Virus record (IMG/VR): IMGVR_UViG_2913123054_000003
Location: 1 to 4,426 of that record
Strand: one strand, 5' to 3'
Origin: a virus
Lineage: Duplodnaviria; Heunggongvirae; Uroviricota; Caudoviricetes
DNA length: 4,426 bases
Shown here piece by piece: positions 1 through 4,426 of the stretch. Position numbers and translations under genes: made by a program. Below the pieces are notes generated by a model. That model made no database searches. It was not told the origin of the DNA and worked only from the letters and a program-made list of their open reading frames with translations. The first letter of the stretch is position 1. Each line of letters opens with the position of its first letter.

Positions 1-405
1 AACCATCTGGCGGCGGCTATCGGGAATCGCCTGCTGAAAGATGGCCAGACAGTGATTGTGGTTACCGTGGCTGATGTCATGAGTGCTCTACACGCCAGCT
101 ATGACGACGGGCAATCAGGCGAAAAATTTTTGCGGGAACTGTGCGAAGTGGATCTGCTGGTTCTTGATGAAATTGGCATTCAGCGCGAGACAAAAAACGA
201 GCAGGTGGTGCTGCACCAGATTGTTGATCGCCGGACAGCGTCGATGCGCAGCGTGGGGATGCTGACAAACCTGAACTATGAGGCCATGAAAACATTGCTC
301 GGCGAGAGGATTATGGATCGCATGACCATGAACGGCGGGCGCTGGGTGATTTTTAACTGGGAGAGCTGGCGCCCGAATGTTGGTCAGCCAGGAATTGAAA
401 AGTAA
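1..405 (+). CDS. DnaC-like replication protein (helicase loader), 5'-truncated by window edge; C-terminal ~134 aa present
   Basis: Frame 1 is open from base 1 to TAA at 403-405. Translation ([29 protein letters not shown]...[70 protein letters not shown]...) aligns by eye with the C-terminal half of E. coli DnaC as I recall it, including the Walker B-like DLLVLDEIG and the MLTN / LLGERxMDRM / WVIFNW blocks. Confidence 0.88.
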
Positions 406-427
406 TTTTTACCGGGAGGAAATTTTA

Positions 428-1177
428 ATGGAAACCGTTTTTGATGCACTGAAAGCAATGGGAAAAGCCACGTCGGTAGAACTGGCAGCGCGACTTGATA
501 TCAGTCGTGAAGAAGTGCTGAACGAGCTGTGGGAACTGAAAAAGGCTGGCTTCGTTGATAAAAGCGTATACACCTGGCGTGTGGCTGATAACAACGTTCA
601 GCAGGAACAGCCAGCACTGCCGGAAGAAACCACTACGGCAACAGTGACGAAAATTTCGGAGAGCGATTTAACTTCGACGATTGAACAACGTGGCCCACAA
701 ACGGCGGATGAACTGGCTACGCTGTTCGGTACAACATCCCGCAAAGTGGCTTCAACGCTGGCAATGGCAATCAGCAAAGGTCGTCTGATTCGCGTTAATC
801 AGAACGGTAAATTTCGTTACTGCATACCGGGCGAAAAAATTAACGATATGAGCGCGCAAAGTACTGCACTGGTGCAAGTGGGCTCGGACGCTGACAAAAA
901 CGAAAAACAGAGCGATCGCAATCGTTTTTCGCCAACAAAAAGACATGAGCAGAGCGAAGAAACTGTAGCAGACATTGTGCAGTCGCTGCCATCGTTTACC
1001 GAAACGCGAGCGGATGACCTCGTTCTGCCATCGCTGCATCTGGCAAGCCGCGAACTGCGTCGGGCGAAAGGCCATGTCCAGAAGTGGGAGCGTGTCTGCG
1101 CCGCGCTGCGAGAGTTGAACAAGCACCGGGATATTATCGCCCAGCTTTGCCAGGAGGCAACCAGTGAGCAAGATTGA
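428..1177 (+). CDS. Prophage protein with two tandem winged-helix-like modules (resembles DUF1627-family proteins found next to prophage replication genes); 249 aa
   Basis: ATG at 428 preceded by GGAGG (415-419) with 8-nt spacing; the track's upstream ATG at 377 lies inside the dnaC-like gene and has no SD. Two similar segments ([46 protein letters not shown] and [40 protein letters not shown]) look like HTH/winged-helix units. Stop TGA at 1175-1177. Confidence 0.75.
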
Positions 1178-1185
1178 CTACCAGG
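1153..1185 (+). repeat. Gene-junction linker repeat, copy 1 (33 bp: SD + GTG start + first codons of downstream gene / last codons of upstream gene)
   Basis: ggaggcaaccagtgagcaagattgactaccagg matches 1609-1641 at 31/33 positions. Confidence 0.85.
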
Positions 1186-1370
1186 AATTGGCTGCTGCTA
1201 ACGCTTTCTTGGCGGATGTGCGGGCTGGGGCGTTTAACGACCTTTGCGCGGCGTTTGTCAGGCACGCAAAAATTGCAGGACTGGACGATGGCGGTCTCGT
1301 TACGGTGAAAGAAGCGACTGATGCGTTGCTGCACTGTGCAGAACAGCTTCGGGAGGGATTCAAGCAATGA
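1164..1370 (+). CDS. Small protein (68 aa) carrying the Ea22-like leader (MSKIDYQEL) joined to a segment resembling the C-terminal module of the downstream 213-aa Ea22-like protein
   Basis: GTG start at 1164 with AGGAGG (1152-1157) 6 nt upstream; overlaps the upstream stop by 14 nt. AFLADVRAG...[10 protein letters not shown] resembles AFLAEVRAQG...ICDELAAQLRKG near the C-terminus of the 1620..2261 protein. Stop TGA at 1368-1370 overlaps the next ATG (ATGA). Confidence 0.6.
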
Positions 1371-1633
1371 GTGAATCAAAATGCCAGGTTTATGGCAACA
1401 AGATAGAACCGTGTACGGCCCTGGCAAAATCCCTTGAGCATGATGCTGAATACACGACGCGAAAAGGTTTGCTGATATACAAAATCTATAACCATGAATT
1501 AATTCATTCACAAGACCTGATCATGCTGCGGTCAGGCGAGTTTTCTAAATCGCCGATTCGAATTTCATTTTGCCCGTTCTGTGGTGAAAGTCTGAAAACG
1601 TGGGAAGCGGAGGCAACCAGTGAGCAAAATTAA
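1367..1633 (+). CDS. Small Cys-rich protein, putative zinc-ribbon (88 aa)
   Basis: ATG at 1367 overlaps the upstream stop (ATGA); GGGAGGG at 1351-1357. Cys pattern C6, C16 ... C69-x2-C72 (FCPFCG). C-terminus EATSEQN repeats the C-terminus (EATSEQD) of the 428..1177 protein. Confidence 0.7.
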   Translation: MSESKCQVYGNKIEPCTALAKSLEHDAEYTTRKGLLIYKIYNHELIHSQDLIMLRSGEFSKSPIRISFCPFCGESLKTWEAEATSEQN

Positions 1634-1641
1634 CTACCAGG
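1609..1641 (+). repeat. Gene-junction linker repeat, copy 2
   Basis: ggaggcaaccagtgagcaaaattaactaccagg; differs from copy 1 at two positions (g/a, g/a). Same 14-nt overlap geometry between stop and GTG start. Confidence 0.85.
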
Positions 1642-2261
1642 TACTACGTGAGATAGCAAAACAGGCAACACAGGGCGAATGGGTCGCATTTATTTCGACG
1701 GGTACTGGTACGTATGCGGTGCATACGCCCGGTGATAAACGATGTGAAGACGTTATCAAATGGACCGGCTTTGACGGACAGAAAAACGCAGAGAACAACG
1801 CTCGTTATATCGCAGCTTTCAACCCTGCAGTAGTGCAGGCACTGCTGGATGAGCGGGAAGCCCAAAGCAAACGCATTGCAGAGATGGAGACTAATCTTGC
1901 GGCGCTGGCAGCGGAGAATGCGAGACTGAAGGTGATGTGTGAGGACCGCCGCAGGTTCATCATGAAAGGGGTGCAACTGGGGTATATCAAGGTGCCAAAA
2001 GCGGAAACAGATCCGGACCTTGAGACAATTCGTATTGCTATATCACCACAAAAGCCCATTCCAGCCACCGATGCTTTTTTGGCTGAAGTAAGGGCGCAGG
2101 GGGTAGAGATGATGCGCGAACACCCATCAATCAAACTTTGCTCTTTGACGCACATATGTGATGAGTTAGCCGCCCAGCTTCGCAAAGGAGAGCTGCATAT
2201 GATGTTTGACGCTGGCATTCACATCAAAGGAGAAGAGCATGGAAATAAAACCAGAAGATGA
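1620..2261 (+). CDS. Ead/Ea22-like family prophage protein with central coiled coil (213 aa)
   Basis: GTG start at 1620 with GGAGG (1609-1613) 6 nt upstream, inside a 33-bp repeat of the 1153-1185 junction. N-terminus MSKINYQVLREIAKQATQGEW and the IAAFNPAVVQALLDEREAQSKRIAEMETNLAALAAENARLK heptad-like stretch fit my recollection of Ead/Ea22-like proteins. Stop TGA at 2259-2261. Confidence 0.72.
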   Translation: MSKINYQVLREIAKQATQGEWVAFISTGTGTYAVHTPGDKRCEDVIKWTGFDGQKNAENNARYIAAFNPAVVQALLDEREAQSKRIAEMETNLAALAAENARLKVMCEDRRRFIMKGVQLGYIKVPKAETDPDLETIRIAISPQKPIPATDAFLAEVRAQGVEMMREHPSIKLCSLTHICDELAAQLRKGELHMMFDAGIHIKGEEHGNKTRR

Positions 2262-2595
2262 GTTAAGTAATATTGTTTTATTTCCGGTAAAAGAGGATGA
2301 CCCACGTAATCAGGTTAATTTTCTTTATGAGCCATCGGAAAGACCATATTGCCATCATGCCTCTGTCCGGGTTGACGAAAAAGAGCGTCAGGTCCGCTGT
2401 AAAATCTGCGGTGCAGTTGTGGAGCCATTTGACTGGATGCTCTCTGTGGCGAAAAGAGAAACCAGACTGGCAGATGATGTAAGGCTATTGCTCCAGGAGG
2501 AACAGGAAAGGCGAAAAAATATAGAAAAGCTAATTCAGATTGAGCGTAACGCGAAAGCGCGGATACGCAGAGCGACAAAATCCAGAACTGAATAA
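2239..2595 (+). CDS. Hypothetical Cys/His-containing protein, possible zinc-binding, with basic coiled-coil C-terminus (118 aa)
   Basis: ATG at 2239 (MEIKPEDEL...) with AGGAG at 2228-2232, 6-nt spacing; preferred over the track's ATG at 2206, which has no SD. Overlaps the upstream gene by 23 nt. Motif YCHH...x14...CKIC. Stop TAA at 2593-2595. Confidence 0.7.
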   Translation: MEIKPEDELSNIVLFPVKEDDPRNQVNFLYEPSERPYCHHASVRVDEKERQVRCKICGAVVEPFDWMLSVAKRETRLADDVRLLLQEEQERRKNIEKLIQIERNAKARIRRATKSRTE

Positions 2596-2661
2596 TTAAA
2601 TTTAGTGCTGTAAATAAAGTTTAATCCTTAACCGGAGGGATTTCTTCACCCTCAAAACATC

Positions 2662-2695
2662 AGGAGGCCGCCCGAAAGGGCGGTAATGAAAAATG
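2662..2695 (+). promoter_or_regulatory. Translation-initiation region with a GNRA hairpin between the SD and the start codon
   Basis: AGGAGG at 2662-2667 is followed directly by a perfect 6-bp stem CCGCCC (2668-2673) / GGGCGG (2678-2683) closing a GAAA loop (2674-2677), then 9 nt to ATG 2693. Linear SD-ATG distance is 25 nt; folded, it is about 9 nt. No U-run follows, so it is not a canonical intrinsic terminator. Confidence 0.45.
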
Positions 2696-3208
2696 ACAGA
2701 ATTAACCAAAGAGCAATTAATCGAAGAAGCCAAATTAAAAATAGCGATTGCGAAATGCCACCCCAATTCAGGGATGGCACGGGTAGAGGGCGAGTTATTC
2801 AAAATTGCACTGGCATCGCTGGAAGCAGAACCGATAGCGTGGGTATGCGGAGAAAACATAATCCTGTTTAATCCTGACACAGTTGAAGCATATGCAAAAC
2901 GTGCGGAGATATCACCTAAACCACTATTCGCCGCCCCGCCAGTGCTACCTGATAGACCGGTAGTGTCGCTGGAAGCAGAGCCGGTTGTAGACAGCGAGTG
3001 GTGGACGCTCTTACGGCAGTTCCTGATTGAACTTCAGGATCGCCGCAAAAACAGCATTTCTGAATCTGGAATCCGTGCTGAAACCCTGAACGATTTAATA
3101 CGACATATTGACAGAAACCTGGATATTGACGCGATGAAATCGCCGTTTGAACTGTCATCTGAAATTGTGGATTACGTTAATAAGCAACTGCGCAAGGAGA
3201 ATGCGTAA
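2693..3208 (+). CDS. Hypothetical prophage protein (171 aa) with an N-terminal module shared with the downstream DUF551-like protein
   Basis: ATG at 2693; long ORF with enterobacterial-like codon usage. Shares FKIALASLEAEPIAW and LFAAPP with the 3797..4297 protein; SLEAEP recurs internally (VVSLEAEPVV). Stop TAA at 3206-3208 overlaps the next ATG (TAATG). Confidence 0.75.
   Translation: MTELTKEQLIEEAKLKIAIAKCHPNSGMARVEGELFKIALASLEAEPIAWVCGENIILFNPDTVEAYAKRAEISPKPLFAAPPVLPDRPVVSLEAEPVVDSEWWTLLRQFLIELQDRRKNSISESGIRAETLNDLIRHIDRNLDIDAMKSPFELSSEIVDYVNKQLRKENA
2804..2832 (+). repeat. Module repeat copy A encoding IALASLEAEP (29 bp)
   Basis: attgcactggcatcgctggaagcagaacc matches 3911-3939 at 26/29. 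A 17-bp sub-copy (tcgctggaagcagagcc) recurs at 2966-2982 inside the same gene. Confidence 0.75.
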
Positions 3209-3384
3209 TGCAGGTGGCATTTGTTGGCTTATTACCGCACCCGATCCGCCTTTGGGCGGATATGTCACTCATAAAATCGCATTTTTTTACTACTGATGGC
3301 GGCATCCCGGCACCAAAGCGCCGCCATACAGGTATTGCAGCGGCACGACGTGCAGCAAAGAAACGCAGGAGAGCAAAACGATGA
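3208..3384 (+). CDS. Small hypothetical protein (58 aa) with strongly basic C-terminus; not in the ORF track (below length cutoff)
   Basis: ATG at 3208 overlapping the upstream TAA; GGAG at 3196-3199, 8-nt spacing. My translation: MQVAFVGLLPHPIRLWADMSLIKSHFFTTDGGIPAPKRRHTGIAAARRAAKKRRRAKR. Stop TGA at 3382-3384 overlaps the next ATG at 3381 (ATGA). Contains two GC-rich inverted repeats, so the region could instead be structured non-coding RNA. Confidence 0.35.
   Translation: MQVAFVGLLPHPIRLWADMSLIKSHFFTTDGGIPAPKRRHTGIAAARRAAKKRRRAKR
3244..3261. other. GC-rich inverted repeat (7-bp stem ATCCGCC/GGCGGAT, 4-nt loop)
   Basis: Perfect complementarity read directly from the sequence. The nearest T-run (3283-3289) is about 21 nt downstream, so it is not a canonical terminator. 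Confidence 0.5.
3296..3327. other. GC-rich inverted repeat (8-bp stem ATGGCGGC/GCCGCCAT, 16-nt loop)
   Basis: Perfect 8-bp arms with the same GGCGG/CCGCC core as the hairpins at 2668-2683 and 3244-3261. Confidence 0.45.
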
Positions 3385-3575
3385 AAAACCGTAAAGCAAA
3401 GATTCTGTTAGCTCGCAGAAACGGTGTTGGGGTCTGGCGATGGTTGAGGATTAGTAACAGACGAGTGAGGTTGACGGGGTGTTGCGGGGTGATGGGTCAC
3501 AGCTGTTGCAAAAAGCCCAGCGCGGCACAAAACCGCTGGAGAAATCACAGTTCTAAGCAAATTAAATGGGAGTGA
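3381..3575 (+). CDS. Small basic Arg/Trp/Cys-rich hypothetical protein (64 aa)
   Basis: ATG at 3381 with AGGAG at 3367-3371, 9-nt spacing; coupled to both neighbours (ATGA upstream, 1-nt gap downstream). Rich in rare Arg/Gly codons (AGA, AGG, CGA, GGG), so coding status is uncertain. Confidence 0.35.
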   Translation: MKNRKAKILLARRNGVGVWRWLRISNRRVRLTGCCGVMGHSCCKKPSAAQNRWRNHSSKQIKWE

Positions 3576-3576
3576 T

Positions 3577-3795
3577 ATGACTACACTATTCAGGAAAAAT
3601 TATCCGCGAAAGAGCAGAGCAACAGAATTCCTGTTTCTCATTCTGTTTATCGTGTTGATGACACCGATATTCCCGCTAATTTTTGTCTGGGTAATCGGGA
3701 AAATAATTGAGCCAGTTATTGAATTGTATAACGACGTGGTATGGGCGTCGTTCAACACACTGCACAATAAAATTAATCCGTATAAGGAAAACTGA
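3577..3795 (+). CDS. Small membrane protein (72 aa) with one predicted transmembrane helix
   Basis: ATG at 3577 one nt after the upstream TGA; GGGAG at 3568-3572 (short 4-nt spacing). Hydrophobic stretch FLFLILFIVLMTPIFPLIFVWVIG. Visibly more AT-rich than flanking genes. Stop TGA at 3793-3795, 1 nt before the next ATG. Confidence 0.5.
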   Translation: MTTLFRKNYPRKSRATEFLFLILFIVLMTPIFPLIFVWVIGKIIEPVIELYNDVVWASFNTLHNKINPYKEN

Positions 3796-3796
3796 T

Positions 3797-4297
3797 ATGG
3801 CAACTATTACCAGAGAAAGCGCAGAGATTAAATCATTCATCACTGGTTTTCTGAGCGATTCGGCGCACGATAACCAATCCTCAAACAGCCTGCTTGCCAA
3901 TGTGTTTCGTATTGCGCTGGCATCGTTGGAAGCAGAGCCAGTGGCATATCAGTATCGCCAGTGGGATGCAGAATATGATGAATGGGGAGAATGGGAAGAT
4001 TGCGGAGAATGCGTTTACGAAGGATTTGTTGAGGAAGAGAAATGTCAGGGGGCAGGTGTTCAGACCCGTAAGCTATATGCCGCGCCGCCAATTTCGGTAA
4101 CTCCGGATGGTTGGATAAGCCGTAGTGAGCGAATGCCGAACGACGCGCAGTGGTGCGTAGTGAACACAGAATACGGGTATTACGTGCAATGCTGGTCTGA
4201 AGGTCAAGGGTGGCTTGGTGATGATATCAGTATCCCTGAATGCGATGTAATCAATTGGATGCCTCTACCAGAACCGCCGCAGGAGGTGAATCAATGA
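3797..4297 (+). CDS. DUF551-like prophage protein (166 aa) with N-terminal IALASLEAEP module
   Basis: ATG at 3797 with AAGGA at 3785-3789, 7-nt spacing; the track's ATG at 3707 lies inside the upstream gene. C-terminal DGWISRSERMPNDAQWCVV...CDVINWMPLPEPP matches my recollection of the DUF551 signature (WIS..ER.P ... W.PLPEPP). Stop TGA at 4295-4297 overlaps the next ATG. Confidence 0.8.
   Translation: MATITRESAEIKSFITGFLSDSAHDNQSSNSLLANVFRIALASLEAEPVAYQYRQWDAEYDEWGEWEDCGECVYEGFVEEEKCQGAGVQTRKLYAAPPISVTPDGWISRSERMPNDAQWCVVNTEYGYYVQCWSEGQGWLGDDISIPECDVINWMPLPEPPQEVNQ
3911..3939 (+). repeat. Module repeat copy B encoding IALASLEAEP (29 bp), in the DUF551-like gene
   Basis: attgcgctggcatcgttggaagcagagcc; 26/29 identical to 2804-2832. 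Confidence 0.75.
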
Positions 4298-4377
4298 CCT
4301 GGCCTGAAGCATTCACAACGGTAGGAATTGCAATGGTGGTGGCGCTGGTGGTGTATTCGATTTGCCGCTGGGGATAA
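4294..4377 (+). CDS. Very small hydrophobic peptide (27 aa), single predicted TM helix; not in the ORF track
   Basis: ATG at 4294 overlapping the upstream stop (ATGA); strong AGGAGG at 4281-4286, 7-nt spacing. My translation: MTWPEAFTTVGIAMVVALVVYSICRWG, stop TAA at 4375-4377. Confidence 0.35.
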   Translation: MTWPEAFTTVGIAMVVALVVYSICRWG

Positions 4378-4426
4378 AAACGATTTGCGGGAAAAGGATA
4401 GTTAAGTAGAATTGCTGCGGGTGCTT

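Follow-up and report, generated by a model that had tools for sequence, protein, structure and literature searches.

The window analyzed in this study comprises 4,426 nucleotides (nt) of a virus of the class Caudoviricetes (positions 1 to 4,426 of the IMG/VR virus record IMGVR_UViG_2913123054_000003) and represents an early-operon segment of a lambdoid or Rac-like Escherichia coli prophage. It harbors the end of a DnaC/IstB-like gene as well as DUF1627, Ead_Ea22, zinc-ribbon-like, DUF4014 and DUF551 genes and a gene encoding a protein of 171 amino acids (aa). Upstream of the 171-aa gene, a G/C hairpin is located between a Shine-Dalgarno (SD) sequence and the start codon. This element, which is considered here as a candidate hairpin-bridged translation initiation site and as the edge of a repeated intergenic cassette, involves the following features:

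2239-2595, plus strand: 118-aa zinc-ribbon-like gene, the upstream neighbor, with a weak match to Pfam Zn_Ribbon_TF
2662-2667, plus strand: SD sequence AGGAGG, 25 nt before the ATG at 2693; its duplex with the 3' end of the 16S rRNA has -10.3 kcal/mol
2668-2683, plus strand: 16-nt hairpin ccgccc-gaaa-gggcgg with a G/C stem of 6 bp (CCGCCC/GGGCGG) and a GAAA loop
2684-2692, plus strand: 9-nt spacer TAATGAAAA, A-rich and unstructured, with an out-of-frame ATG at 2686
2693-3208, plus strand: 171-aa gene (protein start MTELTKEQ) with its ATG at 2693-2695 and no Pfam match; relatives are annotated as ead/Ea22-like or DUF551

The sequence around the element reads ...aaaacatc AGGAGG ccgccc gaaa gggcgg taatgaaaa ATG acagaa..., and the distance of 25 nt between the SD sequence and the ATG decreases to 9 nt when the 16-nt hairpin is subtracted. 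The original prediction, which was made from the letters of the window, had placed the SD sequence, the hairpin and the start codon at exactly these positions and had given both spacings correctly. It had also described 2596-2692 as the largest gap in the window, which holds among the open reading frames (ORFs) accepted as genes.

The GGAG or AAGG cores of the other 10 starts in the window begin at -8 to -15, whereas the SD core of the 171-aa gene lies at -30/-31. Subtraction of the 16-nt hairpin moves it to -14/-15, which is a normal position in this operon. No GGAG, GAGG, AGGA or AAGG core was found in the spacer 2684-2692, and the only SD-like core nearer to the ATG at 2693 is one AAGG at -17, which is part of the stem. 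The earlier statement that the only strong SD sequence of this gene is too distant for normal initiation holds, with more than about 15 nt taken as too far. Moreover, the duplex formed by AGGAGG equals those of the strongest SD sequences of the window. The ATG at 2686 was rejected as a real start, since it is out of frame with the conserved N-terminus MTELTK and only 2 nt away from the stem. Likewise, a small ORF across the cassette was rejected, as the frame ending with the TAA at 2684-2686 contains no ATG, GTG or TTG back to the stop codon at 2615-2617.

Folding predictions, which had been named as a check on the hairpin, yielded -16.9 kcal/mol for a 46-nt segment containing it (z = -4.8; none of 200 shuffled sequences folded equally well). 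The hairpin alone has a predicted free energy change (dG) of -12.4 kcal/mol, or of -14.4 kcal/mol when a seventh predicted pair, G2667.U2684, is counted. In four sequence contexts ranging from 91 to 301 nt, all six stem pairs reached a predicted probability of at least 0.99. The start codon and the spacer 2684-2692 are mostly unpaired; the spacer has probabilities of being unpaired of 0.6-1.0 in two of the four contexts, and its positions 2687-2689 decrease to 0.13-0.27 in the other two. Perfect GC-rich stems of at least 6 bp are expected 0.88 times per strand in the dinucleotide-shuffled window, and 56% of the shuffles contain at least one of them; the hairpin is above chance because of its placement and its conservation over hundreds of copies, not because of its mere existence. 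A stable stem-loop is predicted to separate the SD sequence from the AUG and to cut their spacing to 9 nt.

The original prediction had treated the hairpin as a feature of the 171-aa gene. It turned out instead to form the 3' edge of a portable, repeated cassette of about 93 nt and to coincide with a mosaic boundary. In addition to the SD sequence and the hairpin, the following parts of the cassette were delimited:

2593-2685, plus strand: whole conserved cassette, starting at the upstream gene's stop codon and reaching 2 nt beyond the hairpin; 110.9 bits with the covariance model R1
2596-2633, plus strand: AT-rich 5' part, represented by about three sequence classes in the alignment A1 and ending in AATCCTTAACC
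2634-2653, plus strand: first SD-like sequence GGAGGG (2634-2639) and stem-loop 1, formed by GAGGG (2635-2639) and CCCTC (2649-2653)

The order of elements in the cassette is the AT-rich stretch, GGAGGG with stem-loop 1, a short A/C-rich linker, the SD sequence, the hairpin and usually the dinucleotide TA. Stem-loop 1 is predicted in the minimum free energy and centroid folds, and 99% of its cells are paired in A1 and in the independent metagenome alignment A2, with G.U variants. The AT-rich part (2596-2633) might be cleaved by RNase E or might enhance translation as an AU-rich element. In one lineage (L003, positions 1560-1572, as well as L105, L113, L118 and L155), the loop of stem-loop 1 is replaced by poly-G of variable length (GGAGGGGGGGGCTG); L003 and its relatives also feature a G.G mismatch in the main hairpin (CGGCCC).

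The covariance model R1 was built from 57 distinct cassette copies. A BLAST search with positions 2590-2700 as query against 5,426 complete E. coli genomes located the cassette at 5,014 places in 2,686 genomes, with up to nine copies per genome. O157:H7 strains, STEC005 and ArgO145 are among its carriers. In order to sample copies without bias toward the hairpin, the 17-mer AATCCTTAACCGGAGGG from the upstream part of the cassette was searched in IMG/VR, in one genome per species and in metagenomes, which yielded 220 cassette copies. In the scan of one genome per species, the exact 17-mer occurred in Escherichia, Shigella and one Citrobacter genome only. The phage database adds the record PP818812.1 (Actinobacillus phage vB_Apl-pPE4, recorded from Actinobacillus pleuropneumoniae), which features the cassette at 11318-11598 with 96% identity and also carries Ead/Ea22-like and DUF7167 genes; an E. 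coli-type module is unexpected in an Actinobacillus phage, and the host range or the provenance of this record may be doubtful. Among K-12 prophages, only Rac was scanned; there, the cassette is absent and a deletion is located just after ydaW.

Based on the covariance model, the cassette usually occurs once per locus, and one to three copies were found per prophage. Two full copies approximately 1.1 kb apart are present in one prophage at L143 (1427-1517 and 2504-2597) and at L159 (5588-5681 and 6668-6758); such paired direct repeats could allow deletion or exchange of the genes between them. The left neighbor is most often the zinc-ribbon-like gene, and in the largest subset tested, 98 of 137 copies had upstream 300 nt that were at least 85% identical to the window. 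On the right-hand side, homology to other loci stops 0-2 nt past the stem (in the window at about 2685-2691), followed by many different partners. Since homology ends right past the stem, the cassette would also act as a recombination linker. Considering its at least six downstream families, its several upstream contexts and the breakpoints at its edge, the cassette can be regarded as a lambdoid mosaic linker or boundary sequence.

A split form of the cassette was found in ArgO145 and at five other loci, where the first GGAGG half is followed by an intervening 70-aa gene and then by the SD-hairpin half (coordinates 1224-1522 in ArgO145, L142, and 8000-8305 in L096). In this form, the homologous sequence CTGGAGGT represents the ordinary SD sequence of the 70-aa gene (ArgO145 gp16, L142 1277-1489), and the stop codon of this gene directly precedes the second half (TAA-tgtc-AGGAGG-hairpin-tagttaa-ATG). 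Because these loci possess the SD sequence and the hairpin without the remaining cassette, the SD-hairpin-ATG unit is self-standing. The full cassette may be a deletion derivative of two adjacent ribosome-binding sites (RBSs), or the 70-aa gene may have been inserted.

The genes joined to the cassette were evaluated for 218 SD-hairpin units with at least 200 nt of downstream sequence, originating from IMG/VR, metagenomes and genomes. An ATG is located 6-11 nt past the stem in approximately 207 of these units (about 95%), and 197 of these ATGs open an ORF of at least 40 codons. Spacers of 7 nt predominate (n = 104), followed by spacers of 9 nt (n = 38), 6 nt (n = 33), 11 nt (n = 10) and 8 nt (n = 5); in seven further units, another ATG is located upstream at +2. 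The genes behind the hairpin belong to at least six unrelated families, namely DUF7167 (MRKFK), DUF4014-like (MVTLF, MTTLF, MKHYL), ead/Ea22-like (MTELT, MAELT), MGITK, MLTLK and MQDIK. Spacers such as TAGTTAA, TAGTGAA, TAAGAA, TAATGA, TAATGAAAA, AACAGATA and TAATAAATA lack an SD core, and only the MGITK/MEITK family has its own GGAG in the spacer (TGGAGATAATA). Nearly all spacers are devoid of an SD sequence, and the joined genes would depend on the cassette for it. The RefSeq starts of homologous genes coincide with the post-hairpin ATG (L143, coding sequence at 2605; ArgO145, gp15 at 1523 and gp12 at 2594). Furthermore, natural swaps were observed: the DUF4014 gene (3577, GGAG at -8) and the gene starting with MKNRKAKI (3381) possess canonical SD sequences in the window and a hairpin-type site, or a remnant of it, elsewhere.

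A few copies (L135, L057 and L128/L133) are followed by unrelated DNA instead of a nearby start, and the hairpin can therefore exist without a downstream cistron. In L135 (Citrobacter braakii) and L057, a T-rich, AT-rich stretch common to both (CAATTGTTTGTTAGTTATCTAAAATTGT...) succeeds the hairpin; it looks like this stretch leads into a convergent unit.

Sequence variation among the copies was analyzed with respect to the SD sequence and the stem. Of 220 copies, 219 retain the GGAG core, the sole exception being GGAA, and the bases flanking it vary (A, C or G before it; G, A or T after it). Hairpins identical to that of the window account for 132 of 219 copies, and a predicted dG of -8 kcal/mol or below is retained in 212 of 219. 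The stem cells are paired to 97-98%, and the variants are mostly wobble-compatible. Most common are C-to-T changes in the 5' arm, which lead to U.G wobbles (74 instances, all six stem C's), whereas pair-breaking G-to-A changes amount to 17. The excess of C-to-T over G-to-A is about 4.4-fold in the stem versus 1.3-1.9-fold per base in flanking same-strand coding DNA, with the instances not being independent of each other. A mutational bias toward C-to-T was rejected as the cause of the wobble excess, as the flanking bias is far below that of the stem. The loop is mostly GAAA; GGCA, GGAA, GATA, TAAA, AAAA and GAAAA were also found, and GNRA identity is not essential given this variation.

Two compensatory changes were detected, from G3-C3' to A-U in four copies and from C6-G6' to A-U in one copy; uncompensated intermediates are also present. 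In the alignment A2, the observed pairing and covariation score was reached by only 2 of 500 shuffles. Moreover, in a simulation whose null is the mutation spectrum of the flanking coding region and in which related haplotypes count as independent, the 24 variant haplotypes retained 5.50 of 6 pairs as compared to 5.03 +/- 0.14 expected (P about 0.001), with a mean dG of -10.0 observed and -8.3 +/- 0.5 expected. The check on stem conservation and covariation, which the original prediction had named, thus came out unevenly: the hairpin is conserved across the copies, and covariation, limited by their close relationship, is weak. Selection for a plus-strand RNA stem would agree with this pattern, which is suggestive rather than decisive, as the copies are too similar for proof.

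Based on anatomy, folding and comparison of copies, we consider it moderately probable that the hairpin represents the central part of a translation initiation region that is split in the way described for genes 38 and 25 of phage T4. According to this model, the 16-nt G/C hairpin would fold essentially always on the early polycistronic mRNA, and the 30S subunit would pair with AGGAGG at the 5' foot of the stem. The stem-loop would be extruded on the platform side of the subunit, and the AUG, located 9 nt past the 3' foot (6-11 nt in the family) behind an A-rich, unstructured stretch, would enter the P site at normal spacing. On the unfolded mRNA, the spacing of 25 nt would be non-functional. 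The unit consisting of the SD sequence, the hairpin and about 2 nt is the 3' end of the cassette repeated in lambdoid prophages of E. coli and Shigella; various accessory genes joined 6-11 nt from the stem would be supplied with an RBS by the cassette. On the best reading, the hairpin-bridged site would at the same time serve as a mosaic recombination boundary. The bridging of a distant SD sequence by the hairpin, as originally proposed, fits the spacing, the conservation of GGAG, the pair-preserving variants and the position of the SD sequence after looping out; use of the distant SD sequence by the ribosome and a requirement for the stem are what we infer from these features.

The likeness to structure-dependent initiation sites of phages, which had already been pointed out, was substantiated by the split sites of T4 (Nivinskas et al. 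1999; Malys & Nivinskas 2009; reviewed in PMC3014915). In these sites, a stem-loop reduces the spacing from 22 to 5 nt (gene 38) and from 27 to 11 nt (gene 25), and it is experimentally documented that stem-destabilising mutations reduce initiation; the stems are kept only among close relatives (PMC3014915). The prophage element resembles them in the distance between SD sequence and AUG (22-27 nt in T4; 25 nt here and 22-27 nt in the family), in the reduction by the hairpin (to 5-11 nt in T4; to 9 nt here and 6-11 nt in the family), in the lack of a proximal SD sequence, and in a stem that is kept in close relatives and absent from distant ones. However, there is no sequence homology, and the element belongs to temperate lambdoid prophages rather than to a T-even phage. 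It is part of a portable cassette that exists in thousands of copies and is followed by at least six unrelated genes, in contrast to one gene junction in T4. Furthermore, mutational and probing evidence is available for T4, whereas the prophage element is known from its sequence and predicted folding. Non-contiguous initiation regions have also been described for the E. coli rpmE and thrS mRNAs (PMC7297116). In these cases, too, a stable stem-loop interrupts elements of the initiation region and an AU-rich stretch lies upstream, but the stem separates an AU-rich enhancer from the SD sequence and serves as repressor operator, whereas here the SD sequence is separated from the AUG.

Several observations weigh against a hairpin-bridged site maintained by selection. 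The SD sequence is predicted to be free in two of four folds, in the other two part of it pairs with a CCUU located upstream, and the loop is not strictly of the GNRA type. In the alignment A1, none of the covariation or pairing measures exceeds shuffling, and in A2, the observed number of pairs with both positions altered is attained by 18 of 500 shuffles. The haplotype simulation overstates the evidence because the haplotypes are related. Counted as distinct mutation types, six changes preserve pairing and seven break it, and lineages with mismatches persist (CGGCCC in eight copies, CCACCC in five). As the cassette copies are 85-100% identical, their conservation could reflect recent spread and recombination instead of selection. 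In Klebsiella phages, DUF7167 homologues (L145-L147, 48-70% identity) overlap the upstream gene, some of them starting from its last base, and are not accompanied by the hairpin or the cassette; DUF7167 genes are therefore not intrinsically dependent on a hairpin-type site, and divergent copies of the hairpin RNA were not obtained via these homologues. In addition, screening of approximately 1.1 Mb of related phage DNA for non-homologous SD-hairpin-ATG arrangements retrieved only the present family.

It seems unlikely that the hairpin mainly functions as an mRNA stability or processing element, in which case the A-rich leader would allow weak translation of the downstream gene without an SD sequence, and AGGAGG would be incidental. 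Such an element could be a barrier to 3'-to-5' exonucleases guarding the upstream message, or a protective 5' stem after RNase E cleavage in the AU-rich part. Its setting is in line with this role: the very stable hairpin occupies the only long intergenic gap, where it is preceded by 38 nt of AU-rich, single-stranded sequence and by another stem-loop. Moreover, both the spacer and the start region are rich in A and free of pairing, and the copies in L135, L057 and L128/L133 are not followed by a gene start. Stable, repeated G/C hairpins in intergenic regions of polycistronic mRNA are likewise known as intercistronic stabilisers and repetitive extragenic palindromic (REP) elements; the prophage hairpin differs from these in its sequence, which is not REP-like, in its confinement to prophages, and in being tied to an SD sequence and mostly also to a start codon. 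A stability role accounts neither for the position of GGAG directly at the stem in 219 of 220 copies nor for the ATG that is found 6-11 nt further on in about 95% of copies. It also leaves unexplained that the downstream genes lack an SD sequence of their own, whereas all other genes of the window have one, and that the unit also occurs 4 nt past a stop codon in a tight operon. Stabilization and a split initiation site are not mutually exclusive.

Rather improbable is the explanation that the cassette acts as a linker for recombination and nothing else, being selfish or neutral DNA that has spread recently and in which the hairpin has no role in expression or marks the breakpoint. Its conservation would then stem from recent shared ancestry and from homologous exchange among co-resident prophages. 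This explanation is suggested by the homology break 0-2 nt past the stem in every comparison, with many right-hand partners, by the copy numbers (up to nine per genome, with two about 1 kb apart possible in one prophage), by the identity of 85-100% within a narrow range (Escherichia, Shigella, one Citrobacter genome and one phage record ascribed to Actinobacillus), and by the weak formal covariation. Conserved linkers at gene junctions of lambdoid phages have reportedly been recognized in the modular theory of Susskind and Botstein and in comparisons of HK97, HK022 and HK620. The cassette shares with them a short conserved intergenic sequence between variable genes, breakpoints at its edge, and copies that allow homologous exchange; it differs by two SD sequences and two stem-loops and by a plausible function in expression. 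What speaks against a mere linker is that the joined genes need to be translated yet have no other SD sequence, that the junction distance is limited to the range in which a bridged SD sequence would work, and that the hairpin variants are biased toward retention of pairs. A linker role is compatible with the hairpin-bridged site and forms part of that interpretation.

An operator function of the hairpin, with an RNA-binding protein switching downstream translation on or off, was also considered and appears quite improbable. Candidates would be the upstream zinc-ribbon protein, in analogy to Mu Com acting on the mom mRNA, an N-like arginine-rich peptide that recognizes a GNRA-type loop, or the host protein CsrA binding to two GGA motifs. 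The GNRA-type loop on a G/C stem as in boxB, the zinc-ribbon-like gene as the commonest left-hand neighbor, and the distance of 28 nt between the two GGA motifs (2635 and 2663) are in agreement with such a function. On the other hand, the loop sequence is unconserved (GGCA, TAAA, AAAA, GATA and GAAAA variants), the hairpin can be located at a large distance from the zinc-ribbon gene, as in the ArgO145 copy at 2504-2589, and no boxA is present. The boxB sequence of phage lambda is GCCCU-GAAAA-AGGGC. The boxB elements of lambda and P22 and the prophage hairpin have in common a short G/C stem with a GNRA-type fold (here GCCC-GAAA-GGGC) and their occurrence on early lambdoid transcripts. They differ in that the prophage hairpin has a tetraloop instead of a pentaloop and no boxA, abuts an SD sequence and a start codon, and is located deep in the operon, where it is repeated and variable in its loop.

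An extended version, in which the cassette is a plug-in module for expression and exchange and the SD-hairpin unit is both the point where genes are spliced in and a common translational operator, is regarded as similarly doubtful. A phage factor may recognize the hairpin, for example the upstream zinc-ribbon protein in the manner of Mu Com on the mom mRNA; alternatively, the HNH endonuclease encoded nearby in some prophages may act on the DNA form. Unrelated accessory genes of co-resident prophages may then be switched together.

A transcription signal, i.e., an intrinsic terminator, a pause site or a nut-like antitermination site in the early operon, is extremely unlikely. In its favor are the intergenic position of the G/C-rich stem-loop within an early operon and a weak terminator-like site on the minus strand (2675-2660) flagged by a crude scan. 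However, the minus-strand match is a 5-pair alternative competing with the far stronger stem, and the element has no U-tract, no boxA and no Rfam match and is repeated one to three times per prophage away from pL/pR. An intrinsic terminator was rejected, as the stem is succeeded by UAAUGAAAA and only 1 of 219 copies features at least five T residues in the next 9 nt (mean 2.8); the plus-strand terminator scan gave no match at the element, and a consensus scan detected no promoter in the gap. A nut site was rejected, too: the best boxA match is 5 of 9, a value that is reached by 162 of 4,418 positions of the window, the loop is a tetraloop and not a GNRNA pentaloop, and the position is after the replication and accessory genes. 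Screening of positions 2400-2900 against Rfam 15 at permissive E-values gave best scores of 17-18 bits for unrelated families, the gathering thresholds of which are 45-81 bits.

Known small RNAs (sRNAs) were also compared with the element. The sRNAs AgvB and AsxR of enterohemorrhagic E. coli prophages do not correspond to it, as they are located in the moron site after pR' (PMC4104026). The Pas sRNAs described in a preprint were rejected as well, since the preprint does not link PasA-D to the cassette or its flanking genes and has only the term DUF1627 in common with them, by way of a gene within 10 kb of PasA and PasC. A literature search for the hairpin sequence matched no paper of the library searched, and no prior description of the cassette sequence was found in it.

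This kind of site is already known from the split sites of T4; new are its portability across unrelated genes and its abundance in E. coli prophages, including those of Shiga toxin phages. The cassette is present in about half of the sequenced E. coli, Shiga-toxin phages included. If the proposed function applies, the element would be a third, independent hairpin-bridged site after those of T4 genes 38 and 25 (per PMC3014915), and the first portable one, serving many unrelated genes. Gene finders and calculators of RBS strength that penalize long SD spacing and structure in the spacer would then systematically mis-score such starts. Moreover, the split-site design would tolerate arbitrary downstream coding sequences, which would be of use in synthetic biology, and a concrete lambdoid mosaic linker would have a molecular function besides its role in recombination. 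The element does not constitute a new principle; its use lies in annotation and in the modelling of RBSs.

Further repeats and hairpins were noticed elsewhere in the window. A second perfect GC hairpin of 7 bp, whose arms are similar to the main hairpin's, is located at 3244-3261 (ATCCGCC-TTTG-GGCGGAT). It is enclosed by a 58-aa ORF (3208-3384), which lacks a Pfam match and possesses its own SD sequence AAGGAGA, and the surrounding region 3190-3303 is covered to at least 80% in just 11 E. coli genomes. Furthermore, a direct repeat of 33 nt at 1153-1185 and 1609-1641, GGAGGCAACCAGTGAGCAA(G/A)ATT(G/A)ACTACCAGG, comprises the SD sequence, the GTG start and the first seven codons common to a 68-aa gene and the Ead_Ea22 gene; it is another repeated gene-start junction and could act as a recombination linker. 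Finally, a repeat of 29 nt encoding (A)LASLEAEP occurs twice in the 171-aa gene (2804-2832 and 2954-2982) and once in the DUF551 gene (3911-3939), which suggests shared or shuffled N-terminal modules among accessory proteins.

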